From IMG/VR virus record IMGVR_UViG_3300045988_145381: a stretch of DNA of 48,428 nucleotides; one strand, written 5' to 3'. The notes under the pieces were generated by a model. It saw only the letters and a list, made by a program, of their open reading frames with translations. It ran no database searches and was not told the origin of the DNA. This DNA is from a virus (taxonomy: Duplodnaviria > Heunggongvirae > Uroviricota > Caudoviricetes). The position numbers and the translations under genes are program-made. Positions 129-48,428 of this stretch are shown piece by piece (position 1 is the stretch's first letter; each line of letters starts with the position of its first letter).

Positions 129-1064
129 CAGGCTTCTGGCGCATTACAGAAAAACCAGAACGGCGCAGATATTCCGGGAAAAGATACCTTCACCAAAAAT
201 ATTGGGGCCTGCCGCGCATATAGCGCATGGCTGGATATTGGTGGCGATAGTCAGGTCTGGACAACCGCGCAATTTATTTCGTGGCTGGAGAGTCAGGGAG
301 CATTTAACCATCCTTACTGGATGTGCAAAGGCTCATGGGCTTATGCAAATAATAAGGTCATTACAGATACAGGTTGCGGAAATATTTGTCTTGCAGGTGC
401 TGTGGTGGAAGTTATTGGCACTCGCGGCGCAATGACCATACGCGTTACCACGCCGAGCACGTCCAGCGGTGGAGGAATTACTAACGCTCAATTCACTTAT
501 ATTAATCATGGTGATGCTTACGCTCCTGGCTGGCGACGAGACTACAACACGAAAAATCAACAACCTGCATTTGCTTTAGGGCAAACAGGAAGCACTGTCG
601 GAAATGATAAAGCTGTTGGCTGGAACTGGAATAGCGGGGTCTATAACGCAAATATTGGTGGCGCATCGACATTAATCCTCCACTTCAATATGAATACGGG
701 GAGCTGCCCTGCTGCACAGTTCCGCGTGAATTACAGAAATGGCGGAATCTTTTATCGTTCAGCGCGTGATGGTTATGGCTTTGAAGCTGACTGGTCAGAG
801 TTTTACACCACAACCCGCAAACCCTCTGCGGGAGATGTTGGTGCATATACGCAGGCAGAATGTAACTCAAGGTTTATTACAGGTATTCGCCTTGGCGGTC
901 TGTCATCTGTTCAGACATGGAATGGTCCCGGCTGGTCTGACAGGTCAGGTTATGTCGTTACGGGTTCAGTTAACGGAAACCGTGATGAATTAATTGATAC
1001 AACTCAGGCAAGGCCAATTCAGTATTGCATTAATGGAACGTGGTATAACGCGGGGAGTATTTAA
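104..1064 (+). CDS. silent alternative tail-fibre C-terminal cassette (no own start; fused to the constant part after inversion)
   Basis: Frame is open from 39 to 1064 without an upstream ATG; encodes ...LGLQETVN..., matching residues 454-461 of the expressed 792-aa fibre; C-terminal INGTWYN motif shared with the expressed fibre. Confidence 0.65.
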
Positions 1065-1066
1065 TT

Positions 1067-1600
1067 ATGATGCACTTAAAAAATATTACTGCTGGCAACC
1101 CTAAAACAAAAGAGCAATACCAGCTAACGAAACAATTTAACATCAAATGGCTTTACTCTGAGGACGGAAAAAACTGGTATGAGGAACAAAAGAATTTCCA
1201 GCCAGACACTTTGAAAATGGTCTATGACCATAACGGCGTTATTATTTGTATTGAAAAGGATGTTTCAGCAATTAATCCGGAAGGCGCAAGCGTCGTTGAA
1301 TTACCTGATATTACAGCAAATCGCCGTGCTGACATTTCGGGTAAATGGATGTTCAAAGATGGCGTAGTGGTAAAACGAACTTATACCGAGGAAGAGCAGA
1401 GGCAACAGGCGGAAAATGAAAAGCAAAGCCTGCTACAGCTCGTCAGGGATAAAACCCAGCTATGGGACTCACAGCTACGGCTGGGCATCATTTCCGACGA
1501 GAATAAACAAAAATTAACCGAGTGGATGCTCTATGCGCAGAAAGTCGAATCTACAGACACCTCCAGCCTGCCAGTAACATTTCCCGAACAACCTGAATGA
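1067..1600 (+). CDS. tail fibre assembly chaperone (Tfa), partner of the silent cassette
   Basis: 177-aa ORF directly after the alternative cassette; clear paralog of the 175-aa ORF at 1629..2156 (MMHLKNI.AGN.KT.EQY.LTK...). Confidence 0.7.
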
Positions 1601-1603
1601 GAC

Positions 1604-1630
1604 AAGGCCCGATAGCGGGCCTTAATTTTT
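1604..1630. terminator. hairpin terminator between convergent tfa genes
   Basis: aaggccc/gggcctt stem followed by a T-run, between the two convergent tfa ORFs. Confidence 0.5.
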
Positions 1631-2156
1631 ATTCAGGCTTTTGTGGCCATTCAGGATTTGCCGTATCCACACGGCTGACCAGAACACTGTAGCGTTCCCA
1701 TGACTCCAGTCGTGCGCGCTCCTCATCCGTCGCCATATTCAGCCTGACAGCGCGTTCCAGTGGCTGAATAACGCTTTCTGCTTCGGAAAGTAACGCGGCC
1801 TTTTGTGATTCGGCCTGTTGTTGCTGTTCGTCAGCCGTATAAATCCGTTTAACCACAGCTCCGTCCTTAAACATCCACTTCCCTGAATCATCGGCACGAC
1901 GATTGGCTGTTATATCGGGAACCTCAACGACGCTAAAGCCTTCAGGGTTAAGCGTAGAGGCATCCTTGGTGATAGCGACAATAATATTATTTTCATCGTA
2001 AACAATCTTTATTGTGTCTGGCTGAAAGTTTTTCACTTCCTCATACCAGTTTTTTCCGTCCTCAGAGTAAAGCCAGATAACTCCGTGTTTCTTTGTTAAT
2101 TCGTACTGCTCAAGTGTTTTAGCGTTACCCGCTTTAATGTTCTTTAAGTGCATCAT
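1629..2156 (-). CDS. tail fibre assembly chaperone (Tfa), expressed orientation
   Basis: 175-aa ORF immediately downstream of the tail fibre gene; paralog of 1067..1600. Confidence 0.75.
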
Positions 2157-2157
2157 A

Positions 2158-4536
2158 TTAAACGCTCGCTACATTATACCAGGTGCCATTTATATACTTT
2201 TGAACGGGTCTGTAATAAACGCCCGCTATATTATCGGCAGAGTTGGACCCTGTATCCTGAACATTAATACCAGACAATACATGACCTGACGGGCACTGGA
2301 AATTCCATGTTTGCCAGTTGTTCACTCCATAATATTGCTGTGAACCAAGTCGAACATCTTTCACATATCTGGAATCAAAATTGCCATAGTTGCCGGGAAT
2401 AACTTGCGCACCGCAAAGCCAGTTTCCGTTATTATCCATGTACGCCTGACCATCGGTGCCATTGGCTGTCCTTGAATTATTAATCATGTAGATGCCAAAT
2501 TGCTTGTTCCCCAGTCCACCTATCATGAACTTGCGGTCGGCGTGATTCTGGCGAAGCAACGCCTGAGCGCTATCAGTGTTAACTATATTTTTCCCAAAGA
2601 TAGCGTTGTTATCGCGCATCTGAATCCACATACCATTACTGCTGTTAATAGCAAAACGGTCTGAAAGTGTCTCCCCTGAAACATTAAGACCACGCCCCAT
2701 CGAAACAGCGCCAGTAGCGTTATTAATCCATAATGGCCTTAATCCGTTATAAGTCCCCATGTTGTCACCGGAGTTTGTCAACATGAAGTATGTATTTGAA
2801 CCATCATTACGAATAAAGAATCCGTAATTACCATAAGCAATACGTAGGCCGTTTGCTGATTTTGATATGACTTCGCCATTTACAATGGCATTGACAAGAA
2901 CATACAAAGCATCCCATTTAAGATTCATCAGGTCTTTTGTTGTGGTACTTTGTTTGCTTCTCCATTTGAAATATTCATTGCCGTTGTCGCCTGTCTCAAA
3001 CCACATGTATGAATCAGTGTCACCATCGGCATCATTTTTAAATCCAATCTTCGCCCAGTCAGTATTTCGAATCCAGGCAAGGATTGAGTCATTTTCAAAA
3101 GTAAGCCCGCCGGACAAGGTATCGCCTGTCTTTTGAACGGCGTTACCAGCCTTGTTTACCGTTTCCTGTAAACCGAGGTATTCGATAACGGCAGCAACGG
3201 TCGATTTCGCAAGAATATCCCGCCCGACTTTTGTCAGGGTTGCCAGGCTGGCGACATCATTCCCCGTAAAATACGGAAACTTGTCTGCCGCAGTAGCAAG
3301 CCCGGCCAGCGCCGTCAGGGTGGCATCTTTCGGTTGCTTACCCGCAAGCGCGTTAGTCATGGTGGTCGCAAAATTCGGGTCGTTTCCCAGAGCCGCCGCT
3401 AACTCGTTCAGCGTATTCAGTGCGTCAGGTGACGAGTCCACGAGGGCAGCGATCGCAGCCATAACGAAAGCCGTGCTTGCGATTTGGGTATTATTCGTTC
3501 CCTGTCGCGCAGTTGGCGTTGTTGGCGTTCCGGTCAACGCAGGACTGTTTAAGGGCGCTTTCTTGTTCGTTTCATCCATTACCGCCTTGACCGCTTTCGA
3601 TGTCGCGGCCAGTGTTTCAGACGTGCTGTTGGTGGAACTACTGAGCTGAGTTATTCCCCTTACAGTCAGTGAAGCTACAGGCACATTTGTTATCTGCTCC
3701 CACGAATGCGTGTGATTGGACGGAGCCTTTCCGGCCGCAAGATCATACGCTGCCTTAACAGCCTTTGGTGTTGCTGCTAGCGTTTCAGACGTGCTGTTGG
3801 TGGCACTACTGAGCTGAACAATCCCTTTTCGCGCTGTGGTAGCGTCCTGTGCGGTGTATTTGCCATTAGCCAGGTCATATGCTGCCTTAACAGCCTTAGG
3901 CGTCGCAGCAAGCGTTTCAGACGAGCTATTGGTGGCGCTGCTAAGTTGAACAAAGCCTTTTGAGGTTAAAGTTGCATCAGGATGATTACGTGATTGTTCA
4001 TGTTTCACAATGGCTTGCTTAAGCCGCTTTGCTGAAACAGCAAGGGAATCATCTGTACCGTCATCAATTTCTTGTTCATTGGCAAATCTTGCAACCCCAA
4101 CAACAGTTTCGGTTGCGGGAGGATTAATAAACTCAATATCACCAAATGTAATATTTTTAGTATCAAGAGTCTTGATTGCTATGTCACTTGATATTAAAGC
4201 AATAGTAGATGATGCTTTATTTATTATTGCTTGTTCTTGCGAGTATACAGCAAACAACGTTCCCTTATTTGTATACAATCCTATTGTATGGACAACATAC
4301 TCATCTTTACTATCATCCTTCGCCGTTACATGAATTGTATCAGGGGAAACAACTTTGCCACCTATTGTGGTAAGTCGTTTTATTTCGTTTGTTATATTTG
4401 TTTGTGAAGTTGACGTGACATAATATCTACTACCTAAACCAACAGAAACAATCTCAACTTTATTTGTTCCTGTTTTGTTGGCATTAACCAGCTCCTGACG
4501 CCCGGCGTCAGTCATCGTAAATAATAATTTACTCAC
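2158..4536 (-). CDS. tail fibre protein (constant N-terminal part plus currently expressed variable C-terminal part)
   Basis: 792-aa ORF with three tandem ~33-aa repeats (G[IF][27 protein letters not shown]) typical of phage tail-fibre repeats; crossover site inside the ORF; followed by tfa. Confidence 0.85.
3155..3179. promoter_or_regulatory. DNA-invertase crossover site, right inverted repeat (inside tail fibre ORF)
   Basis: Perfect reverse complement of 103..127; falls at codons ~453-461 of the fibre. Confidence 0.75.
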
Positions 4537-26891: not shown

Positions 26892-26940
26892 AACATCACC
26901 TGAAAATAAAAAGCCCCGCGACACCGCGAGGCTGTAAGAG

Positions 26941-27773: not shown

Positions 27774-27800
27774 TCTCCTTTGTCTGGATGTAAAAAAGCC
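27774..27800 (-). terminator. rho-independent terminator
   Basis: gcctcggcaattgccggggc hairpin followed by tttttt on the minus strand. Confidence 0.55.
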
Positions 27801-27840
27801 CCGGCAATTGCCGAGGCTCGTTGTTCGTTATCGTTACGGT

Positions 27841-28041: not shown

Positions 28042-28307
28042 TCATCATCTCCTGCCGCACATACAACCTCACAAAAAACATCAGCGGAATGTTTCTCCTT
28101 GAACGAATGACGCTCAAAACCGCACTCAATATCAGGCGCAAAAACATCCACCACATACGGTCTTTCAGAATGTTGGTTTTCCCAACGATAAACCGTAGTG
28201 ACGTTGAAATGTTTTAACGCTTCACGGAACTCAACGCTGCCCGTCAGGTTTTTTGAGGTCAGGTATTGCAGGAGGTTTTTTACTACTTCACGGTCTTGTA
28301 CTTTCAT
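28038..28307 (-). CDS. hypothetical protein
   Basis: 89-aa ORF directly downstream of copy 1 of the conserved promoter-leader element. Confidence 0.45.
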   Translation of the reverse strand: MKVQDREVVKNLLQYLTSKNLTGSVEFREALKHFNVTTVYRWENQHSERPYVVDVFAPDIECGFERHSFKEKHSADVFCEVVCAAGDDE

Positions 28308-28314
28308 CGGGTTA

Positions 28315-28425
28315 TCTCCGGTTTAACCAGGGCGGGTATCGCTCGGTTTCGGGTATAACCTTAGGAAATTTTTTCCCACCTGTAAAGCACTTTTTATATA
28401 AATCTATAATTATATAATTCTATGA
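28315..28425 (-). promoter_or_regulatory. conserved promoter-leader element, copy 1
   Basis: Near-identical to 34827..34940 and 44347..44457; gene-direction read gives TTTACA-17bp-TAAGGT, a -10-like TATACC, a conserved leader and ggaga Shine-Dalgarno; AT-rich palindrome upstream. Confidence 0.6.
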
Positions 28426-29315: not shown

Positions 29316-29391
29316 TGGTGGCCCCTACCGGATTTGAACCGATGACCGTGCGATTATGAGTCGCCTGCTCTAACCACTGAGCTAAGGGGCC
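29316..29391 (-). tRNA. tRNA, anticodon CAU (Ile2-like or Met)
   Basis: 76-nt cloverleaf GGCCCCTTAGCTCAGTGGTTAGAGCAGGCGACTCATAATCGC...GGTTCAAATCCGGTAGGGGCCACCA with encoded CCA; 5' half matches E. coli ileX-type tRNA as recalled from memory. Confidence 0.85.
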
Positions 29392-29560
29392 ATATTTGAT
29401 CTGTTTGTCTGGTGTGGCGCCGCGCACGAAAATCCCAGCCAATAAATTCAGGATTTTTGGGCGCGGCGGCATATCAGACAAACATGGTTGATGCGTGCGC
29501 CCATAAGAAAAGCGCATAGAATGTTGTAACTATATATTTATATAATTATAGAAATATATA

Positions 29561-29770
29561 TTACTTTCGGCAGTTGATTTCCCATGCCCTGTTATGAGCC
29601 AGAATATCTTTCTTTGTCTGGCGGTCCATAACATCGATGTCGTGATCAGTCAGGTAGATGGGCTTTACCCAATCACAGGCGGTATCAACCACCACCGGGA
29701 CGCTTCCACGACTCCCGCAGCTCGCGATCAACATCGTCATCAGCCATATGGTTAACACTCTGCTGTACAT
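29561..29770 (-). CDS. o-spanin (Rz1-like lipoprotein)
   Basis: 69-aa ORF with lipobox-like LIASC, out of frame inside the 3' part of the i-spanin ORF. Confidence 0.55.
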   Translation of the reverse strand: MYSRVLTIWLMTMLIASCGSRGSVPVVVDTACDWVKPIYLTDHDIDVMDRQTKKDILAHNRAWEINCRK

Positions 29771-30502: not shown

Positions 30503-30785
30503 GATTAAATCCTAATGCGTCAACTATCCGCGCCAGATTGCCCCTGAAATACAGAACAACGATGCAGATAATCAGATTTCCAATAACCACCAGCCAGTGG
30601 GATTCTTGATAAAGACCGAACACATAACGGAAGGGAACATTGGCGTATACAATGACGTAGATATAAGCTAGAAAGGAAACAAATGGACGATGCCTGGAGT
30701 CTTTCCGTCGATAAAGCATCAGCGCCATTACTATTACTGTGCAAAGCACCGCATTAATCAGTGCTGACGGGTCACTGCTTACCAT
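30489..30785 (-). CDS. membrane protein, possible holin or antiholin partner
   Basis: About 3 TM segments; between the holin and the endolysin; start uncertain (ORF track 30489..30821). Confidence 0.4.
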   Translation of the reverse strand: MVSSDPSALINAVLCTVIVMALMLYRRKDSRHRPFVSFLAYIYVIVYANVPFRYVFGLYQESHWLVVIGNLIICIVVLYFRGNLARIVDALGFNHDQR

Positions 30786-31167
30786 TTGAACCCCCTCCAC
30801 GTAAGCGGGAAAGCATTCCAAAGATGCTACCGAGATCCTGGCTGTTTACGAACGTGAGGATTTTAATGGTCAATGCAGCCACAATAACCGCACCAAGCGC
30901 ATCCAGAGGACGATCGTTGTAGCTGGTCCATTTGGCAAGAAATGAGCCAACTAACGGCGCTCCAATCACTCCAACAATGAACGATGTAAAGAAATAGCCA
31001 ATCAGCTTGAGACGGCTAATATTCACCGCTGTAGCAACATAGAAAACAGCGCCAGCAAATGCCCCGAATACAACGCCGTAATCAATACCAGTTGCAATAC
31101 CAAAAACGCTGGCACCCATCAGGCCACCAGCAGCAACGGCCGTACCGGAAATTGGTTCTGCTGACAT
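30772..31167 (-). CDS. holin (putative)
   Basis: 131-aa multi-TM protein at the head of the lysis cassette; gaggat Shine-Dalgarno; terminator immediately upstream. Confidence 0.55.
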   Translation of the reverse strand: MSAEPISGTAVAAGGLMGASVFGIATGIDYGVVFGAFAGAVFYVATAVNISRLKLIGYFFTSFIVGVIGAPLVGSFLAKWTSYNDRPLDALGAVIVAALTIKILTFVNSQDLGSIFGMLSRLRGGGSNGKQ

Positions 31168-31176
31168 TGAAATCCT

Positions 31177-31212
31177 CGTTAAAAAAAAAGCCCCGCCGAA
31201 AAAGGCAGGGCT
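31177..31212 (-). terminator. terminator-like hairpin upstream of the lysis cassette
   Basis: Minus-strand GC hairpin followed by a run of 9 T. Confidence 0.5.
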
Positions 31213-31553
31213 TCATAAAGCAACAAATTACGCGGTAATCGCTTAACGCAGTTTTACTACGTTAAATGAAACACTACACCCAGTTACCACCTAAAACAAG
31301 GTTTCCCCATAAAAAAACCTTCATATCGTGGTTAATCGATCAATAAAAAAGCAATGTTCAACTTTTTACCAACCGAACATCCCGACCAGGACTTCCATAA
31401 TATTCGCCGATATGCCACTGCTTAAGTTGAGTAATCTTCTCCAACTTAACTCCCATAGAGTCCAGTTTCTGCCATGTTTTCGGTTGTATGTGCTTCATTA
31501 CCCGCTCTGAATATCTGAATACTGCTCGTAAGCGCATGGCTTCTCACTACAGC

Positions 31554-32060
31554 TTATATATGTTCACGACTGGACTTCCAGAATATCCACGCCAGATCAA
31601 CATTCGGGTCCTGGTAATTCATCCCTTCGTTGGCACGAAGCAATAATGTTTCATGGTTTTTATCACCCGCATGAAACCTGACAAGTGCTTCGAACTTTTC
31701 GCGCCCATCATCCGGCACTACCGGCTCTGGTTGGATAGTGACGTTGGCAAAGGCAGCACGCAAACCGGCCTTAATTTCCTCTACTTCATCAGCGCCTAGC
31801 GATGAATCTGACAATGCGTGATGGAATGCGTAAGCCATATCGTCGTTTACTGCAACCGGCTCTGCTTCCAGTGATGCCAGTGCAATTTCATAAGCACGGC
31901 GCTCAATATTGTCTCTAACGTCCAAGCTGCCTATGCGCTCTTTGATTTCTTTAATCATTTCTTTGTCGGTAAAAGTGGTCACATCACTCTCCTTTAGTGC
32001 GCAGATAACTGTGGTTTTTCCAGCGGTTTTGCGCCGCGCTGGGCTTTTTGCAAAAACCAC
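31554..32060 (-). CDS. hypothetical protein
   Basis: 168-aa ORF; start uncertain. Confidence 0.4.
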   Translation of the reverse strand: MVFAKSPARRKTAGKTTVICALKESDVTTFTDKEMIKEIKERIGSLDVRDNIERRAYEIALASLEAEPVAVNDDMAYAFHHALSDSSLGADEVEEIKAGLRAAFANVTIQPEPVVPDDGREKFEALVRFHAGDKNHETLLLRANEGMNYQDPNVDLAWIFWKSSREHI

Positions 32061-32164
32061 AATCCATCATCCCGTAATGTTTCATTAACCCCATCCGTCG
32101 GTTGCTGAGTCTCACCCACTGCCAGACGCCAGGAGCGTTTCTACGAACTAACAGAATCTTTGCT

Positions 32165-32452
32165 TTACGGTTTTTCATCGTTTGCCCCCTGCTTTTCTGC
32201 CCTTAACACCATGCGAGAACCATCATCCAGCTCCCAATTGATTTCACCGCCTTCTGCCATGACAAGATGCCAAACGAGTTGTGCGGCCTCGTTGGTTACA
32301 TCACGACCGCGATCATTGCCTACACGGCGTTTTGTTCCGTCACCTAAATCGCGCATTTTGGCCAACACGATGGTTTTTGATAGCGGTGAAAAACCAAGCT
32401 GTAGCCGTGCGGAATTACTCACTGGTTGCCCCCTGAATACGTTTAAACTCAA
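32165..32452 (-). CDS. hypothetical protein
   Basis: 95-aa ORF; true start probably internal (MRDLGDG...). Confidence 0.3.
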   Translation of the reverse strand: MSLNVFRGQPVSNSARLQLGFSPLSKTIVLAKMRDLGDGTKRRVGNDRGRDVTNEAAQLVWHLVMAEGGEINWELDDGSRMVLRAEKQGANDEKP

Positions 32453-33020
32453 TTACCCATACCCACGGGTTAGATAGCCAGTTCTCTTGCCCGTAAATAC
32501 CGCGCCAGATATCACCAAAGCCAACGCGATAAACCGCTTCCGGCGGTGTAATCTTGTACGTCGCCGGAGATGCGCCTTCCGCTTTAGCATCTGCCTCGCT
32601 CATGTCATGCAGCCGTTCCACACGCACGTCGGTAATTTCCAGCAAAATACGCGAAGCCCAGCGCGGCATGTGAATCGACGGGGTCCAGCCCTCAGCTGGC
32701 TTGCTACTATCTGAGTAATCAGCCTTGTAATCACACAGTTCAGAAGCCAGAGAGACACCATCTTTGATTTCCTGAATGACATCGTTATCCAGCCAAAAAG
32801 CGTTGAATGTTTCACGGACCCATATGCGATCACCAACGTTACCGAACGGGCATAAACCATGTTCCGGTGCATCCATAACGTGGGTATAGACACCATTGCG
32901 TTTCTTTGTCGGTTTACGGATAACCAGGCAGTTATCGGCCCTGACATTTTTTACAGGTCGGCGAGTCTGCGTTTTCCTTCCTTCGAGGATGGCTCTGACC
33001 ATCTCATCATTAAAAATCAT
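32415..33020 (-). CDS. ASCH/PUA-like domain protein (putative)
   Basis: ORF 32415..33107 trimmed to MIFNDEMVRAILEGRKTQTRR..., an ASCH-like N-terminal signature recalled from memory. Confidence 0.45.
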   Translation of the reverse strand: MIFNDEMVRAILEGRKTQTRRPVKNVRADNCLVIRKPTKKRNGVYTHVMDAPEHGLCPFGNVGDRIWVRETFNAFWLDNDVIQEIKDGVSLASELCDYKADYSDSSKPAEGWTPSIHMPRWASRILLEITDVRVERLHDMSEADAKAEGASPATYKITPPEAVYRVGFGDIWRGIYGQENWLSNPWVWVIEFKRIQGATSE

Positions 33021-33040
33021 GCCGCGCTCTTTCACCTTGC

Positions 33041-33406
33041 TCACTTCAACTCCTCCCGACGACGTTCCTGAAGCTCTAGCATTGCGGCTCGGAAATCCTG
33101 CCACCACTCCTCATCTGCAACGGGGGTGTTCCGCTCCAGCACCTTGTCCGCATCTGCGATCAGATTTGCCAGACTCTTGTCTGAAATCTTCGTTACCGGA
33201 GTCGTTGGTTGCTCAACCTGCCCGATAGGTTTTATCGTGCTCAAAAGGAGGCGACGGCTGGAAAGTGGCGACCCACAACGGCGCCCATCTTCCTTGCGAT
33301 ATGTTTCTTTCGGACCAACACACCAAGTTGTCGGCGTTTCGCGTAACTTCACTTTTTTCTCACCATCAATGGTGATGATTATTCCGGTATGGGTTTTGAT
33401 GCTCAT
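33041..33406 (-). CDS. hypothetical protein
   Basis: 121-aa ORF coupled to the upstream gene. Confidence 0.4.
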   Translation of the reverse strand: MSIKTHTGIIITIDGEKKVKLRETPTTWCVGPKETYRKEDGRRCGSPLSSRRLLLSTIKPIGQVEQPTTPVTKISDKSLANLIADADKVLERNTPVADEEWWQDFRAAMLELQERRREELK

Positions 33407-33684
33407 GCCACAGCCCCTCTCAACGGCTTAACTTTGGCTAATAAGGTGTTAAACAACATGGAGTTAGGGTTCATGCCAAATGGCAATTCCGGTTTAGCGG
33501 AGTAGTACAGGCAACCATTTATTTTCCTGGTTGTTATCTGTCCTTCGGCAACCATGCTTCTCAGTCTGCAACGCATAGAGTTCTGCGACACACCAATGTG
33601 CTCCGCGATTACGTCCACTTTTGAACATGGGTGATCGGTCAGGAAATTAATCACATCTTGGGGGTTAATAATTTTGCGTTTCAT
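33403..33684 (-). CDS. small winged-helix-like DNA-binding protein (putative)
   Basis: ORF 33403..33705 with probable start MKRKIINPQDV...; AT-rich palindrome motif immediately upstream. Confidence 0.4.
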   Translation of the reverse strand: MKRKIINPQDVINFLTDHPCSKVDVIAEHIGVSQNSMRCRLRSMVAEGQITTRKINGCLYYSAKPELPFGMNPNSMLFNTLLAKVKPLRGAVA

Positions 33685-33761
33685 TGTCGAGGCGTCCTTA
33701 TACATTTATATAAATATATAATTCTATATACAGCGGGAGACATCCCGCCGTATGCTTACTG

Positions 33762-34829
33762 TCAGGCTTTCAATAGCGATTCTTTCAGATATCGGGCATC
33801 AGCCAGGGCGTTTGGAGTAATCTTGCGAACCCATGCATTACGGGTTGGACTCCACTTAAAGGCGCGTGATTTAAGCAGCGAACGAATGTTTGCCTCTGGT
33901 TTGCCAGGGAAATAAAACAGGATGCGGTTATCCTCTGGATCTATCTCCATAGAAAAGCCGTCGTATTCTTCGCGCTGTGCTCCTGTTACAGACTTGACCG
34001 ATTCAAGCTCCTTAATACGGCTCTGTAGTCGTTTGATTTCGGCGTTATTGTTGCTCAGTGCGTATGAAGGGAATCCGATGCGCCCACAGAAATCTCCGGC
34101 CAGTAACTCTTTGGCTTCGCTTTCTGTAAACCTGAGATCGATTAATGCAGAAAGCTGCTGTAATTGGTCTTTTTTGTATTTGCGAATGGCCTTATTTGCG
34201 GCCTTCATTTTGACGTGTGACTTCATGCAGCCTTGCAGTTTACGAAGCAACTTAAATAGCGCATCAGGATCATCAGACGAAATTCCATTACGACCAACAC
34301 CTGCGGCTTTGCTCTCGTAGTGTGATGCTTTACTTTCGCATTCAACAAACGCTTTTCTGAATAACGCATCAGCTTTAGACAAACGGCGGCGATGGCCTTT
34401 CGCGCTATAATGGTCAACTAAAATCGGCTGGCCTAACGGGATCACATCCAACAGGTCATGCGCTCGCTTATGCGCTACCGCTCCTTCTTTTCTGGCTTTT
34501 TCTGCACGAGCAATATATCGGGCAAGACGCGCGTTCTGGCGTTCCTGATAGGTGTTTACGTAATCATCTCCGCGCTGCTGCTGTTCAAGCCATGCTTTGC
34601 GCAGATCTTCTGTTACGTCCACCAGCTCCGCAGGGATACAACCAGTTTGGGCTTCATAAGAGTAACCATCCTCATAGATGCGCCCATCGTCTTCAACAAA
34701 GAAAAAGGTTTCGTGCTCATCGCTTTTGACCATACGACCATTAACATGGCGTAATAGGTAGCCAGTATCAGTGCTTAACAGGCTGTTAGGGTTGTTGATC
34801 CAGTCAGAAATAATTACTTGTTTATTCAT
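33762..34829 (-). CDS. DUF3560-like protein
   Basis: 355-aa ORF; C-terminal ...FKWSPTRNAWVRK... resembles the DUF3560 signature recalled from memory; downstream of promoter-leader copy 2. Confidence 0.5.
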   Translation of the reverse strand: MNKQVIISDWINNPNSLLSTDTGYLLRHVNGRMVKSDEHETFFFVEDDGRIYEDGYSYEAQTGCIPAELVDVTEDLRKAWLEQQQRGDDYVNTYQERQNARLARYIARAEKARKEGAVAHKRAHDLLDVIPLGQPILVDHYSAKGHRRRLSKADALFRKAFVECESKASHYESKAAGVGRNGISSDDPDALFKLLRKLQGCMKSHVKMKAANKAIRKYKKDQLQQLSALIDLRFTESEAKELLAGDFCGRIGFPSYALSNNNAEIKRLQSRIKELESVKSVTGAQREEYDGFSMEIDPEDNRILFYFPGKPEANIRSLLKSRAFKWSPTRNAWVRKITPNALADARYLKESLLKA

Positions 34830-34940
34830 CAGATTTCTCCGGTTTAACCAGGGCGGGTATCGCTCGGTTTCGGGTATAACCTTAGGAAATTTTTTCCCAC
34901 CTGTAAAGCACTTTTTATATAAATTATATAATTATATATT
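34827..34940 (-). promoter_or_regulatory. conserved promoter-leader element, copy 2
   Basis: Near-identical to copies 1 and 3; lies between the Q-like gene and the DUF3560-like gene. Confidence 0.6.
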
Positions 34941-35000
34941 ATTAGATTTTCGATGTTCCCGATGTCTACACACCTATCAAAAAGCTCAAAATTGACACTT

Positions 35001-35378
35001 TTACTCTCTTCGCTTTTTCAAATAGTCGACAACATACGCCCTGGCTTTTGCCAACTTCCGGCGATACTGTCTGAGACTAAGAGAAAGGGCGTGGGCTTTA
35101 TCAATATGCGGTGCATTTATGTCGAGGCCCCGAATCTCCCACGCCCCGTATTCAATTCGGACAACCAGCGCCGCAGTCTCATCAACTACCGTGAGGGCCG
35201 TCACCGCTCCCTCGATACTGGTTTCCAGTGAGTCATTTGGTGCGCCGCCTCCTCCGGTAAACTGGCAACGCGTAACCATCATCATTTCTAACATCGACGC
35301 GAAACCGCTACGGGCGTTGCAGCCATTGCGCACCCACAGCGCCCATAGCTCAAACAAGCTATCCAGATCGCGTCTCAC
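35001..35378 (-). CDS. antitermination protein Q-like (putative)
   Basis: 125-aa ORF; ...LFELWALWVRNG... and C-terminal basic region resemble Q21/QuuD-type antiterminators recalled from memory; sits at the end of the cro-side operon. Confidence 0.45.
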   Translation of the reverse strand: MRRDLDSLFELWALWVRNGCNARSGFASMLEMMMVTRCQFTGGGGAPNDSLETSIEGAVTALTVVDETAALVVRIEYGAWEIRGLDINAPHIDKAHALSLSLRQYRRKLAKARAYVVDYLKKRRE

Positions 35379-35381
35379 TGT

Positions 35382-35714
35382 TCAGATCTCCCGTATCGTG
35401 ACGGGATAAAGCGCCTCTACCTGCTTTTTCTTCATGATGTAGACGTCTGTTCGCACACCTTTAGTGTCGACACAATCAATCGTCCCATCGTCATAAAACA
35501 CCATGAAATCAAGTTTATAAACGACACCACCAGGCAGATGAAAAGGCACCTGCATAAGAAACGTCACAACGCGGCCAGCTTTTCTCAGTAGCTTCAGTTC
35601 GCAGTAGTAATCAGCCTCTTTTTTGCTATCAAAAGCGATATCATCGACAACCGTTTTTTTATTGCCGTATTTGCTTTTCCTTGTCGCTGGTTTGCGAAAG
35701 CCGGTATATCTCAT
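35382..35714 (-). CDS. DUF1064-family phage protein
   Basis: 110-aa ORF MRYTGFRKP...KYGNKKTVVDDIAFDSKKEADYY... typical of the family. Confidence 0.55.
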   Translation of the reverse strand: MRYTGFRKPATRKSKYGNKKTVVDDIAFDSKKEADYYCELKLLRKAGRVVTFLMQVPFHLPGGVVYKLDFMVFYDDGTIDCVDTKGVRTDVYIMKKKQVEALYPVTIREI

Positions 35715-38655: not shown

Positions 38656-38683
38656 CTGCAAGCGGGCTAACGCCCGCTTATAT

Positions 38684-38790
38684 GATTATAGATTTATATA
38701 ATTATATAAAACGCTTTTCATCCGCCAAAAAGTTGGTTATGCTTACCTCGTTCTATAAATATAGATTTATAGAATTATATAACCAAACAC
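38684..38790. repeat. AT-rich palindromic repeats upstream of parF-like gene (candidate centromere/operator)
   Basis: Perfect 16-bp palindrome ttatataattatataa at 38694..38709 and related tatagatttatagaattatataa at 38764..38786; a third copy at 39458..39490. Confidence 0.5.
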
Positions 38791-39459
38791 ATGGAGTCTC
38801 GACAAATGACTATCTCTGTAGGTATTTTCAACGGAAAAGGCGGCGTAACCAAATCAACAATTGCCCGTGCTTTAGCAGTTGCTTATGCAAAGGCTGGCTG
38901 GAATGTATGCCTGATCGATATGGATGTGCTTAACGGAACGGTAACGCGTTGGGTACAACGCAGAATGGCCAACAATATCGAACCAGCAATCGCGGCGCAG
39001 CCGTGCGGCACACCATCACAAGTCCAGAAAATCATCGAATCAGAAGTATACGACCTGGTTATCGTCGATGGCGGTGCCTACGCATCTGAATCAGTACCGA
39101 AGCTCTCTGAATTTCTGGATATGGTTATTTTGCCAACCAGATTCTCTACCGATGACCTGGAAACCACCGTTAACACTGCTCACGGCATCGTTAAAAAGGG
39201 TGTACCAATCAAGAAAATTTGCATGGTGTTTTCCGGCGCGGCTGAAAACGAAGCTGACTATATTGAAGCCCAAGAGTACCTGGCTAATACGCCATACTTT
39301 GTTGTTGATAAGTACATTCCCCACAAGCCAGCTCTGAGCAAAGCTCAGGATAAGGGCTTAAGCCTCATTGAGTGCTCATACGTTGCGCCACGCAAAAAGG
39401 CAGACGACGTTATTCAGGGGATTATCAACCAGCTTGAGGCTCTGACTACTGCCGCGTAA
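38791..39459 (+). CDS. ParA/ParF-type partition ATPase
   Basis: 222-aa ORF with deviant Walker A (GIFNGKGGVTKST); start may be the second Met at 38806. Confidence 0.7.
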   Translation: MESRQMTISVGIFNGKGGVTKSTIARALAVAYAKAGWNVCLIDMDVLNGTVTRWVQRRMANNIEPAIAAQPCGTPSQVQKIIESEVYDLVIVDGGAYASESVPKLSEFLDMVILPTRFSTDDLETTVNTAHGIVKKGVPIKKICMVFSGAAENEADYIEAQEYLANTPYFVVDKYIPHKPALSKAQDKGLSLIECSYVAPRKKADDVIQGIINQLEALTTAA

Positions 39460-39502
39460 TATATAATTATAGTTTTATAGATTTATATAAGAGGGGATAC
39501 AC

Positions 39503-39967: not shown

Positions 39968-39990
39968 AACCATAAAAAAGGCCCCCGAAG
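39968..39990 (-). terminator. rho-independent terminator (minus-strand orientation)
   Basis: ggcccccgaaggggcc hairpin with a T-run on the minus strand. Confidence 0.5.
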
Positions 39991-40001
39991 GGGCCTAATC
40001 G

Positions 40002-40124
40002 CTACTTGCTGCTAATGTTTATCGTCACATTTAGAGCGTTATCAGTAATCTTCCAACCCTCCCCATGTGGCGTAAACAAAGCTCCAGTAACAACGATAAA
40101 AATACACATACAGTATTTTTTCAT
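40002..40124 (-). CDS. small hydrophobic peptide (40 aa, MKKYCMCIFIVVTGALFTPHGEGW...)
   Basis: Read directly from sequence; Shine-Dalgarno-like aaggg upstream; terminator 39968..39990 immediately downstream. Confidence 0.25.
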   Translation of the reverse strand: MKKYCMCIFIVVTGALFTPHGEGWKITDNALNVTINISSK

Positions 40125-40520
40125 TGTATGGCCCTTACAGGCCGTTTCACGGCATCCCCACCGACGAAAACAACGCGAGAGCAAGCACGGCTGCTTGTGC
40201 TTGCATGTACGGCAACGGAGAATCCTCCCCTAAAGTCGGTGCCCGGGTGCGAATCGGCGGGAAGGTCCACAGGTATTTTACGATTATTTTAAGATTAGTA
40301 ATAGGAAAGAAATTAAACGAAAAAACTCGTTTATTTTCACAAAATCAGTAACCTACCCACAATCTGTGAGTTTGCAGGCACAACAAGAACCACAATTTTT
40401 TGAAGCATAATAGTGGACTATTATTACCTTTTGGGTAAAATTAACTTGCTGCTTGTGCTTGCGTGGTTGTTTATACAACAACGTAATGCTGAAAGGACCG
40501 CGAATCCGATCAGCACGAAA

Positions 40521-40549: not shown

Positions 40550-40690
40550 TTTCTGCCTACCAATAAACCCACGCTATGTGGTTGTCTCTGTTAAAATCCC
40601 GCCGTATTGACATGAATGCGCCATTGGTGGACACTTTCCGAGCCGTAGCAAAATCTACGGTCGGGATTGGCGTCCCGATTGCACAATGGC

Positions 40691-40716
40691 GCATACCGCG
40701 TTAGCGGTTTTTTTAT
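40691..40716 (+). terminator. intrinsic terminator-like hairpin in the ant leader region
   Basis: accgc-gtta-gcggt stem-loop followed by 7 T. Confidence 0.45.
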
Positions 40717-40876
40717 GCGTAAAGCACTGCTACACCCAAATTATGGTGGGGCGTGCGGGGGCGGAGAAATCCGCGCCGGGTTTGTCATTGTGCCGGTTAC
40801 GCCAACCCTGTACGTCTCACCACCATATTGATTGGCGTCATTGGTGGTGATAGTTCCTTTAATCGGAGATATCACA

Positions 40877-41068
40877 ATGACAAACCTACCCCATGACTAT
40901 TACGTCAACCTCGTAAAGATCCTTCTCAAGAAAGCCTCATACGCCGATAAATTCCGCCTGGCTGAAATCATCGAGCGCGAAGCTATGCGCATCGCCAGCA
41001 ACGATAACGCTGTTTCTGACGCAAAAATCTCCCTCGTAACCAAAGTAGTTATGGGAGGTGCAAAATGA
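40877..41068 (+). CDS. small protein overlapping the ant start (Icd-like position)
   Basis: 63-aa ORF (MTNLPHDYYVNL...) within ORF 40832..41068; ATGA overlap with the ant-like gene. Confidence 0.35.
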   Translation: MTNLPHDYYVNLVKILLKKASYADKFRLAEIIEREAMRIASNDNAVSDAKISLVTKVVMGGAK

Positions 41069-42246
41069 AAACGCTTCCGACCGTTAACACCCTACAGCCT
41101 ATCCTGCATAACCAGCTCCCCGTTATCACTACTGAACTACTGGCGCAATTGTATGGAACCGAGCGCCAACGTCTGACAAACAATTTCAATAGAAACAAGG
41201 AACGTTTTATAGAAGGTAAACACTTTTTTAGGATAGAAGGTAAAGAGTTACGAGAGTTGAAGAACAAAAACTCTTTAAGAGTTCCTGTGAGAGTAGTTAA
41301 CGAACCATCTTTAAGAGGGTTACAAATTCCCCCGAAAGTTCGCTCCCTCATCCTCTGGACAGAACGCGGGGCTGCACGTCACGCTAAAATGCTTGAAACT
41401 AACCAAGCGTGGGATGTGTTCGAACGGCTGGAAGACTGCTATTTCAACCAGAACGCGCAAACGGCCGCGACCGTAACCGTCTCACCAAACAATGCTCGTG
41501 AGGTTGTCGATACGCTCAACGCCAAACCGATGTTTTACATTAAAGTGTGCAACAACGAGCCACTCACAACCTCAGCCGATGTTGCCCAGGCATTCAGCAC
41601 CACAAACAATTCCATCGTTATGGCCATCGATGCGTTACGCATTCCTCGCACAGCTGCGGCGCGTCATTTCTTTAAAGAGCAACGACCGTTGGAAGGAAGC
41701 GACCGCGAAATAACAATCTATCGCATGACAAAAGACGGATTTACCTTGCTCATGGAAAGTATCGACGGTCCAGGCGTGAAGGATATCAAGCTGGCCTACA
41801 TTGAAGCCTTTAACGCTATCAGCAGCGTGTTAAAAACACAGTACGAGCGCGATCTGGCTAAACGACTGTACCAGGAAAAAACGATTATCCGCGCGGCAAC
41901 AGAGCATAATCGGCTATTAACGGAACCGAACTACAGGAAGGAACTAATCAAGGAGTTTGACAAGGCAACAGGGAAAACCAAAGCGGCGCTAAGTCTGCCA
42001 GCAATGACTCAGGAAAATGTGATATCAGCCTTACTTCTTGATCTGCTCAGAAACGCCAGAGCACTTATCAGCTTTGACGAAAACCTGAATCCTCAGCTCA
42101 AGCTACTACCACCGACAGGCAAAGTAGTCGACCAGGCTGATCACAACAGCATACTCAGCGTACTGGATGCAAACCTGCCAGCCAGGACACTACAGGATCT
42201 GATAAAAACATGTGCTGATAAGCTGGCACAGAAAAGCAGACCATAA
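41065..42246 (+). CDS. ant: antirepressor (ORF6N/KilA-N-like plus Rha/Ant-like domains)
   Basis: 393-aa ORF; N-terminal ...ITTELLAQLYGTERQRLTNNFNRNKERFIEGKHFFRIEGKELREL... and central Rha/Ant-like region; hairpin terminator at 42252..42271. Confidence 0.65.
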   Translation: MKTLPTVNTLQPILHNQLPVITTELLAQLYGTERQRLTNNFNRNKERFIEGKHFFRIEGKELRELKNKNSLRVPVRVVNEPSLRGLQIPPKVRSLILWTERGAARHAKMLETNQAWDVFERLEDCYFNQNAQTAATVTVSPNNAREVVDTLNAKPMFYIKVCNNEPLTTSADVAQAFSTTNNSIVMAIDALRIPRTAAARHFFKEQRPLEGSDREITIYRMTKDGFTLLMESIDGPGVKDIKLAYIEAFNAISSVLKTQYERDLAKRLYQEKTIIRAATEHNRLLTEPNYRKELIKEFDKATGKTKAALSLPAMTQENVISALLLDLLRNARALISFDENLNPQLKLLPPTGKVVDQADHNSILSVLDANLPARTLQDLIKTCADKLAQKSRP

Positions 42247-43923: not shown

Positions 43924-43950
43924 CGCAAAGTGTCAAAATGACACTTTGCG
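43924..43950. terminator. perfect 12-bp-stem palindrome between convergent genes
   Basis: cgcaaagtgtca-aaa-tgacactttgcg. Confidence 0.45.
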
Positions 43951-43958
43951 CATTGTGT

Positions 43959-44339
43959 TTACTTAACGAGGAATAAAAATGGTTTATTGTTCGGCGGTGT
44001 AATCGGGGCTGGCTCGCTTTTGCTCATGCGATCAGTGTACCAGGCCAACTCCTTGTCAAAGTAAGCCTGATTAAAATAGGCCATGAATGTAGTTTCAAAT
44101 CCATAACGACCGCTAATACGCAGCATCTGATTGCCGTTCTCTGTTTCCAGATATACCTGGGCACGTTCCTGATTCTCCTTCAGCCAGGTTAAAGCCTCAT
44201 CGCATGAGGACACACGATACTCATCATCGTAGCAGTCATCGATGCGGCTTGAGGAAGAACGGCAAATCACGCCAACAGAACCAGCCAGGATAGTTTGAAT
44301 TTTAAGGAAAGCGTTTTTGCGGATTTTAATCATGCTCAT
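43959..44339 (-). CDS. hypothetical protein
   Basis: 126-aa ORF directly downstream of promoter-leader copy 3. Confidence 0.45.
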   Translation of the reverse strand: MSMIKIRKNAFLKIQTILAGSVGVICRSSSSRIDDCYDDEYRVSSCDEALTWLKENQERAQVYLETENGNQMLRISGRYGFETTFMAYFNQAYFDKELAWYTDRMSKSEPAPITPPNNKPFLFLVK

Positions 44340-44346
44340 CGGGTTA

Positions 44347-44457
44347 TCTCCGGTTTAACCAGGGCGGGTATCGCTCGGTTTCGGGTATAACCTTAGGAAT
44401 TTTTTTCCCACCTGTAAAGCACTTTTTATATAAATATATAATTATATAATTCTATGA
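44347..44457 (-). promoter_or_regulatory. conserved promoter-leader element, copy 3
   Basis: Near-identical to copies 1 and 2, including the upstream ttatataattctatga motif. Confidence 0.6.
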
Positions 44458-44502
44458 GCACAAAAAAGCCCCTTTGCAACAGGGGCTTATCATTCGTTCT
44501 GA

Positions 44503-47775: not shown

Positions 47776-48330
47776 TCAATGATTCCCAGCCGGAAACCTG
47801 CGGTAAAGCGTGGATAAGGTAACATCGAAGATAATCGCTATCCGCTTACGTGAAACACCATTCGCAATAAGCCTTCCGATCTGTTCCCATTGCTCTGGTG
47901 CCAATTTTGAGCGGCGTCCTCCTATCCTGCCGTTAGCCCTTGCCACCGCCAATCCTGCACGCGTTCTTTCAATCATATTTTCCCGCTCCATCTCTGCGAC
48001 TGCACTCAGCATCGTGTAGGCAAAGCGGCCAATTGAAGTGCTAATTTTTATCCCTTCCGTAATCGAAATAAACTCAATGTTGTTTGATAAAAAATAGTTT
48101 AGTAAATCAACAAGATGAATCAGAGAACGCCCCATTCGGTCCAGCTTCCAGACAATAACCGTATCGCCCGGCCGTAACACCTTCAGTAGCTTATCAAGTC
48201 CTGGTCGTTTTGATTTAGCACCGGATATTTTATCTTCAAAAATCCGGTCACATCCTGAACTCCTGAGCGCCTCCAATTGTAATTCCAAATTCTGGTCAAA
48301 AGTTGACACCCTCGCATAACCATATTGCAT
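47776..48330 (-). CDS. serine DNA invertase (Hin/Gin/Cin/Pin family)
   Basis: 184-aa ORF MQYGYARVSTFDQNLELQLEAL...DRMGRS... with catalytic Ser motif and C-terminal HTH; start wraps to window position 30; crossover site upstream. Confidence 0.9.
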   Translation of the reverse strand: MQYGYARVSTFDQNLELQLEALRSSGCDRIFEDKISGAKSKRPGLDKLLKVLRPGDTVIVWKLDRMGRSLIHLVDLLNYFLSNNIEFISITEGIKISTSIGRFAYTMLSAVAEMERENMIERTRAGLAVARANGRIGGRRSKLAPEQWEQIGRLIANGVSRKRIAIIFDVTLSTLYRRFPAGNH

Positions 48331-48428
48331 ACTTTCTAAACCGCGATTGTTGCTAAAAGCGGGAAAAAATATCGTTCAGACGACACAGAGGCAATTCGCA
48401 AAAACCTCGGTTTACAGGAAACGGTAAA

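Follow-up and report, generated by a model that had tools for sequence, protein, structure and literature searches.

In lambdoid and Shiga toxin (Stx) phages, the antiterminator gene Q is followed by the promoter PR', the terminator tR', a site that takes up foreign genes, and S. Accessory hot spots beside phage lysis genes are well known, and a block of additional genes at such a place is therefore not surprising in itself. Here we describe one such block in the IMG/VR virus record IMGVR_UViG_3300045988_145381 (Caudoviricetes), a stretch of 48,428 nucleotides (nt) that we refer to as the window. Together with the Q-like gene upstream of it (31358-35378 in all), the block resembles the lambdoid arrangement in its order of Q-family gene, promoter, accessory genes, and holin and endolysin. 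Unlike the lambdoid and Stx cases, the host element is a plasmid-prophage (phage-plasmid) with a contractile tail, the promoter-leader occurs in three copies and there is no toxin. Furthermore, tR' precedes the cargo in lambda and Stx phages, whereas here a strong terminator follows the accessory genes, which are thus not obviously Q-dependent. We consider it probable that the block is the promoter-proximal, pre-terminator accessory region of one of three transcription units that share a promoter-leader, in a phage-plasmid of Escherichia coli.

Parts of the locus also resemble other described elements. The distal genes of the block match L0065-L0068 of phage 933W, genes of the non-essential ea region located between xis and exo; the distal genes share ~93% nucleotide identity in part, or the same PHROG families, with ea/b-region genes (EaA, Ead/Ea22-like and DUF551 genes among them), and Ea22-like genes replace them in sibling plasmids. 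In lambdoid phages, however, ea genes belong to the early-left operon between exo and xis, whereas here they lie between the Q-like and lysis genes. The protein with a DUF3560 domain encoded next to the promoter-leader shares its core and C-terminal domain (43-48% identity) with products of the establishment (leading) genes of conjugative plasmids, and conjugative elements of Dickeya and Xenorhabdus encode homologues that share its long N-terminal form. Where the proteins of conjugative plasmids carry ArdcN or LPD domains, its own N-terminal domain is small and beta-rich; moreover, its gene has no ssb or ardC neighbour and is borne by a phage-plasmid. With P1, the element has in common a PmgT homologue (44% identity), a c4 RNA, a Ref nuclease and plasmid maintenance genes, but its genome is half the size and includes P2-like tail genes and a Q21-like gene, whereas P1 uses the late activator Lpa. 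We know of no member of the DUF3560 family with a tested function, nor of a function for PmgT.

Gene content and organization of the block

All genes of the block are encoded on the minus strand (Table 1). Between 31554 and 34829 we identified seven genes rather than the six of a preliminary description of this sequence, and an eighth (31537..31358) lies just past the lower end of this interval. The "three unknown" open reading frames (ORFs) of that description are four within these limits (121 amino acids (aa), DUF7446, 64 aa and 142 aa), with a fifth (59 aa) just outside. Its other anatomical claims stood: the DUF3560-like gene and the small winged-helix-like gene both gave family matches, the genes are co-oriented, and the block lies between promoter-leader copy 2 and the pre-holin terminator, with a Q-like gene upstream and a lysis cassette downstream. 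In this cassette, the first holin gene is followed by a Phage_holin_3_7 gene, a GH108+PG_binding_3 endolysin gene and spanin-like ORFs.

Start codons were set by Shine-Dalgarno sequences, start/stop overlaps of the GTGA/ATGA type and the annotation of relatives. ORF calls of 168 aa and 230 aa were dropped for the 142-aa and 209-aa genes on the Shine-Dalgarno and overlap evidence; the start of the PmgT/ASCH-like gene has a GGAGGA Shine-Dalgarno sequence and a GTGA overlap. From the winged helix-turn-helix (wHTH) gene through the 59-aa gene, intergenic gaps range from -14 to +16 nt. This is operon-like packing rather than a run of chance ORFs. The 59-aa ORF is without annotation in the relatives pP136-7 and vB_YpM_39.

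Most of the block proteins are basic, and none has a predicted transmembrane or hydrophobic segment, so a reading of any of them as a toxin or membrane protein was rejected. Pfam and NCBIfam scans matched none of them to replication, morphogenesis or toxin families. The toxins suggested at first thus found no counterpart, and the homology to core replication or morphogenesis genes that would have spoken against a cargo block was not seen. Searches of PADLOC-DB with all block proteins matched no known defence family (a single chance-level match to SoFic, E-value (E) 0.0063, fell in the wHTH region); no search against known anti-defence proteins was made. Rfam gave nothing within the block, and PDB sequence searches with the DUF3560, wHTH, 121-aa, DUF7446 and 142-aa proteins and an ASCH-family profile gave nothing significant.

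Table 1. Position of genes, predicted transcription signals and other features in the window
Feature	Position	Strand	Details
Q21-like gene (putative antiterminator), 125 aa	35378..35001	-	last gene of early operon
Promoter-leader, copy 1	28304-28425		~115 nt; ends exactly at ATG of a minus-strand gene
Promoter-leader, copy 2	34825-34946		~115 nt; ends exactly at ATG of a minus-strand gene
Promoter-leader, copy 3	44336-44457		~115 nt; ends exactly at ATG of a minus-strand gene
DUF3560 gene, 355 aa	34829..33762	-	Pfam PF12083, 108.2 bits (cutoff 27.2), residues 94-216
GC hairpin	33748-33733	-	between DUF3560 and wHTH genes
AT-rich promoter-like array	33690-33730	-	before wHTH gene; same type as in the three promoters
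wHTH gene, 93 aa	33684..33403	-	phrog_1687 'MarR family', E 5e-32
Unknown gene, 121 aa	33406..33041	-	phrog_7520
PmgT/ASCH-like gene, 209 aa	33044..32415	-	from GTG 33044; P1 PmgT homology
DUF7446 gene, 85 aa	32422..32165	-	variable zone; PF24233, 61.9 bits (cutoff 24.1), E 5e-17
Unknown basic protein gene, 64 aa	32178..31984	-	variable zone; phrog_1380, E 7e-38; annotated in pP136-7
Unknown acidic protein gene, 142 aa	31982..31554	-	variable zone; phrog_660
59-aa gene	31537..31358	-	phrog_9594, full length, E 8.6e-46
Strong intrinsic terminator, copy-2 unit	31214..31187	-	11 pairs then T-run; ~20 nt before holin ATG at 31167; feature as delimited 31177..31214
First holin gene	30772..31167	-	Pfam Phage_holin_8, E 1.7e-37
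Strong terminator, copy-1 unit	27819..27796	-	~25 nt before ATG of next gene
Second strong terminator, copy-1 unit	26933..26912	-	ahead of morphogenesis genes
Long palindromic hairpin, copy 3	43924-43950		directly after 126-aa gene
AT-rich arrays, 8-bp period, eight intergenic sites	28394-28425, 29522-29569, 33690-33729, 34915-34946, 38678-38709, 38751-38790, 39459-39498, 44418-44465		TTATATAA / TATAGAWT units
ryfA (Rfam)	39974-40270	-
isrK (Rfam)	40642-40714	+
C4 antisense RNA (Rfam)	40739-40827	+
393-aa ORF	41065-42246	+	same position in pP136-7 annotated ORF6N domain-containing
Inverted repeats	100-151 / 3131-3182		flank ~3-kb segment
Opposed tail-fibre and tail-fibre-assembly genes	1061-2162		within the ~3-kb segment
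Recombinase gene, 184 aa	47776-48330		adjoins the ~3-kb tail-fibre segment
tRNA gene, anticodon CAT	29316-29391	-	between lysis genes and MT-A70 methyltransferase gene

Conserved and variable parts

BLAST comparison of 31100-35400 with nine relatives divides the block into two parts, a lineage-conserved proximal module and a distal shuffling zone. The region 33036-35400 is 98-99% identical in all nine, and each of them has the DUF3560, wHTH, 121-aa and PmgT/ASCH-like genes. The last of these is internally mosaic (32682-32810), and in some relatives small genes (159 or 249 nt) are inserted at 33035/33036. The region 31356-32417 is swapped in most relatives for Ea22-like and DUF551 genes, a 345-nt gene and pseudogene fragments. 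Here the DUF7446 gene is absent or replaced in five relatives (L002, L006, L007, L008 and L009), and the position of the 142-aa gene is taken by Ea22-like or DUF551 genes; the window's own 142/168-aa ORF has no Pfam match to the Ead/Ea22 family (PF13935). Beyond this zone, all nine relatives conserve 31100-31355, where the terminator lies and the holin gene starts. The exchange breakpoints fall at gene boundaries (31355, 31530, 31734, 31887, 31980-84, 32418-32 and 33035-40), with the 59-aa gene flanked by those at 31355 and 31530.

The exact distal cassette occurs in only 8 of 5426 complete genomes, and pieces of it in 1522, mostly on chromosomes (1760 chromosomal places). The 64-aa gene is ~93% identical in nucleotide sequence to the ea region of Stx phages, 933W among them. 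Of the block, the lineage in Klebsiella aerogenes keeps only the DUF3560 and wHTH genes; behind them come other small genes and Ea22-like ones. Distal alleles appear to be exchanged gene by gene with accessory genes of the ea type from P1-like plasmids and lambdoid prophages. The cargo hot spot proposed earlier thus describes the distal genes, which are swapped cassette by cassette, but not the proximal half, which is a conserved part of the lineage rather than cargo.

Promoter-leaders, terminators and AT-rich arrays

Copy 2 of the promoter-leader (34830..34946 on the minus strand, up to the DUF3560 gene) consists of an AT-rich TTATATAA array and an ~85-nt leader that ends at the DUF3560 ATG. 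In the K. aerogenes relative (L010) the promoter-leader before DUF3560 is ~90% identical, and the encoded proteins show 86% (Q-like), 70% (DUF3560) and 47% (wHTH, same-position gene) identity. The non-coding promoter-leader is therefore more strongly conserved than the adjoining DUF3560 and wHTH proteins. Predicted RNA folding of the leader is no better than that of shuffled sequence (z -0.29), and a put-like RNA is therefore unlikely; a role at the DNA level, for example as a candidate Q-binding or pause element, is more likely.

A search of the copy-2 leader for a terminator-like site corresponding to tR' found none. The sole strong terminator of this unit is downstream of the block and is kept in nine of nine relatives, and in L010 a strong terminator lies directly before its different lysis genes. 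Late, Q-dependent expression of the block does not follow from this anatomy, the strong terminator being downstream of the block and not upstream. Copies 1 and 2 each lead, one or several genes on, to a strong terminator close against the start of the next gene, so that read-through would be required in the copy-1 unit too; behind copy 3, a long palindromic hairpin comes directly after the 126-aa gene (Table 1). Taken together, the three copies of the promoter-leader resemble a PR'-type system in several copies on which the Q21-like protein would act.

The GC hairpin and the array between the DUF3560 and wHTH genes are both conserved in L010 despite the 47-70% identity of the flanking proteins, and the block may therefore hold two transcription units. 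Arrays of this type, with a period of eight base pairs (bp), occur in the three promoter-leaders, before the wHTH gene, before a tRNA gene, twice before parA, and once before an 82-aa gene that follows parA. They could serve as promoters, as operators or as centromere-like sites.

The Q21-like gene upstream of the block

The 125-aa protein by itself has no Pfam or PDB sequence match. Its sole NCBIfam match is weak and full-length, to the PA0613 family (E 2.5e-4), named for an uncharacterised gene that immediately precedes the holin gene in the R-pyocin cluster of Pseudomonas aeruginosa; the Q21-like and PA0613 families may be linked. The close family of the protein comprises 31 sequences, and an exhaustive profile search extended it to 128 cluster representatives. 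Among 114 representatives, the commonest Pfam match was Phage_antitermQ (10 members, best E 1e-4), followed by ECF sigma and sigma region 4. When these 114 were combined into a profile, it matched a single PDB protein significantly, the antiterminator Q21 (6jnx/6p18; E 2.9e-5), in an alignment that takes in the LELWxxW motif. Q21 is also the top Foldseek match of an AlphaFold2 model of the protein (predicted local distance difference test (pLDDT) 77), with a template modelling (TM) score of ~0.5, a probability of 0.91 and an E of 0.38 that is not significant alone. We accept the 125-aa protein as Q-like by remote homology to Q21, as the gene had been labelled at first.

The DUF3560 protein

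The model of the DUF3560 protein (pLDDT 90) has a small beta-rich N-terminal domain (~residues 1-65), a core of long helical hairpins with highly conserved loops (IPxGQPIL..H.S, GGISSDDPDA and FCGR.GF.SYALSNNNA), and a C-terminal alpha/beta domain. The common form of the family (~265 aa) lacks the N-terminal domain, and other members carry ArdcN, or LPD30+LPD29, at its position. Compared with ArdC, which is defined by the ssDNA-binding ArdcN and a C-terminal metalloprotease domain, the window protein matched only DUF3560; the metalloprotease is a separate gene in IncW plasmids, and ArdcN is found only in fused DUF3560 homologues.

PLSDB contains 433 plasmid records with a DUF3560 homologue, 232 of them conjugative. 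The IncW gene order is ardC, two small ORFs, DUF3560 and ssb, and the "ArdC" of a PromA plasmid is an ArdcN+DUF3560 fusion encoded near kfrA and ssb. In Xenorhabdus the DUF3560 gene is near genes for ArdA and a TrwC relaxase, and in a Dickeya plasmid it is next to LPD29. For pO157, a published table lists a DNA methylase, an antirestriction protein, DUF1380, DUF3560 and ssb together, all ciprofloxacin-induced (PMC11125564). These plasmid associations suggest that DUF3560 proteins may play a role on incoming DNA or in counter-defence. Literature searches on PF12083/pmgT found nothing.

Other proteins of the block

The wHTH protein has weak PDB sequence matches to the wHTH regulators NolR and GntR, and PGAP names it 'helix-turn-helix domain-containing protein' in relatives. 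For the 121-aa protein, no Pfam, NCBIfam or PDB match was found. The PmgT/ASCH-like protein had been described as ASCH/PUA-like. The gene is present and its product is a homologue of P1 PmgT (tblastn: 44% identity over 85% of the query, E 1e-32), but the ASCH domain (PF04266) stays below threshold (17.2-17.7 bits, cutoff 21.2), as it does in 15 of 17 homologues. PGAP calls some alleles 'ASCH domain-containing protein', and the ASCH-family profile gave no PDB sequence match. The protein is widespread in phages of many phyla. ASCH domains are predicted binders of RNA or modified nucleic acids. Literature searches on DUF7446 found nothing.

The host element and its relatives

The whole window is a ~48-kb plasmid-prophage of E. 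coli and is not lambdoid, contrary to the lambdoid setting assumed in the preliminary description. Nucleotides 1-127 exactly equal 48302-48428; this 127-nt terminal duplication indicates that the window is a circular assembly and agrees with the circular plasmid records of relatives. It is most closely related to ~47-52-kb circular plasmids from E. coli and to three Yersinia phages. In the PGAP annotation of pP136-7, genes were identified for RepA, ParA, a RelE/ParE pair, two ParB-like proteins, two methyltransferases, a Ref nuclease and an XRE repressor, along with a recombinase adjoining an invertible tail-fibre region and P2-like baseplate, sheath, tube and gpD genes, which point to a contractile tail. 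RepA, ParA, RelE/ParE, the P2-like tail genes, the c4 RNA with its antirepressor gene and the circular plasmid records set the element apart from lambdoid temperate phages, whose marks are integrase, CI/Cro and O/P-type replication.

Rfam identified ryfA, isrK and a C4 antisense RNA, in that order, the latter two upstream of an ORF6N antirepressor gene (the 393-aa ORF). An immI (c4-ant) immunity module of the P1/P7 type is here combined with a P2-like tail in an element of 48 kb.

Of 5426 complete E. coli genomes, 69 (~1.3%) carry the proximal part of the block. Nearly all of the carriers are plasmids of this kind, including pATCC25922_1 of the reference strain ATCC 25922. The pSLy3 phage-plasmid group was considered as this lineage and rejected, pSLy3 belonging to the SSU5 supergroup of ~100 kb. 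Literature searches on the Yersinia phages and pATCC25922 found nothing.

Predicted expression and function

Drawing on the observed anatomy, homologies and variability of the block and the Q21-like nature of the upstream gene, we predict that transcription is initiated from the AT-rich promoter within copy 2, and probably a second time from the array before the wHTH gene. Given that no strong terminator precedes the block, its transcription would need neither Q nor antitermination. The holin and later genes would be reached only when the Q21-like protein gives read-through of the terminator at 31214..31187. Genes placed ~20-25 nt behind strong terminators need read-through, and this fits processive antitermination by the Q21-like protein; terminator gating is also supported by the K. 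aerogenes relative, in which the whole architecture is kept. The conserved module may act on nucleic acids in establishment or host takeover, possibly in counter-defence, since DUF3560 adjoins ssb/ardC in plasmid establishment regions or is fused to the N-terminal domain of ArdC, which binds single-stranded DNA. The distal genes would be dispensable and interchangeable accessory genes.

A more specific proposal, which we put forward only tentatively and with considerable doubt, is that the DUF3560 protein is an establishment or counter-defence factor common to conjugative plasmids and phage-plasmids. Here it would be paired with the wHTH protein, and it would protect or establish incoming DNA. 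Because its gene is directly behind the PR'-like promoter and ahead of the first terminator, the protein would be made as soon as this promoter fires, including in the plasmid state.

Several points weigh against these proposals. Where transcription starts, whether the promoter is constitutive or regulated, and antitermination itself are all predicted from the DNA. The block could be silenced in the plasmid state if the AT-rich arrays and the weak hairpin that follows DUF3560 act as operators. The Q-like protein resembles Q21 only remotely, and an activator fold like that of sigma region 4 has an equally good score. The window DUF3560 protein has an alanine at position 143, where ~90% of its relatives have glutamate, and its association with ardC and ssb is not enough to assign it an anti-defence role.

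With a Q21-like gene immediately upstream, a lysis cassette immediately downstream, a hypervariable distal half and a link of DUF3560 to antirestriction loci in plasmids, the block might also be the late, Q-dependent cargo of a lambdoid phage, like stx, with toxins or anti-defence factors made only in lytic growth. We regard this as unlikely, given that the element is a plasmid-prophage whose tail is P2-like and whose immunity is P1-like, that no terminator between the promoter-leader and the block makes Q obviously necessary, that no toxin or defence family was matched, and that the proximal half is conserved and not cargo. Alternatively, the DUF3560-wHTH(-121 aa-ASCH) module could be a core function of the lineage, in lytic-phase DNA replication or plasmid establishment. 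DUF3560 and wHTH hold the same position in the K. aerogenes lineage as in that of E. coli, the early operon showed no other recognisable genes for lytic replication, plasmid homologues of DUF3560 adjoin ssb, and the C-terminal half of the DUF3560 protein matches phrog_19458, labelled 'primase'. However, Pfam, NCBIfam and PDB sequence searches detected no primase, helicase, polymerase or nuclease domain in this protein, its model is a helical bundle with small flanking domains, and RepA is available for replication; moreover, DUF3560 and wHTH evolve faster than the Q-like gene. We therefore give a core function little credence.

A mainly regulatory block, in which the wHTH protein, and possibly DUF3560 through a MotA-CTD-like C-terminal domain, binds the 8-bp arrays and coordinates development with plasmid maintenance, seems to us quite improbable. 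The case for it is purely positional, the MotA match is one among many non-specific ones, and regulation explains nothing about the other six genes. The arrays also flank parA and precede the 82-aa gene, whose ParG-like product could be their binding protein instead, an arrangement known from type Ib partition systems. We thus return to an accessory region ahead of the terminator, probably transcribed from the shared promoter-leader.

Other features of the element

A segment of ~3 kb flanked by inverted repeats carries the opposed tail-fibre and tail-fibre-assembly genes, and with the adjoining recombinase gene it looks like an invertible host-range switch of the Gin/Cin type. The tRNA with anticodon CAT is identified by ARAGORN as tRNA-Met, whereas PGAP calls the pP136-7 orthologue tRNA-Ile; the latter naming would imply the lysidine-modified type.

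Implications

The block is an accessory (moron-type) region, with DUF3560 as its most interesting lead. The locus documents a poorly described lineage of ~48-kb phage-plasmids that apparently uses a Q21-like antiterminator, three promoter-leader copies and terminator-gated operons. It also shows gene-by-gene exchange between phage-plasmids and integrated lambdoid prophages. Finally, it offers DUF3560, a widespread gene of plasmid establishment regions, as a candidate in a small and tractable replicon.

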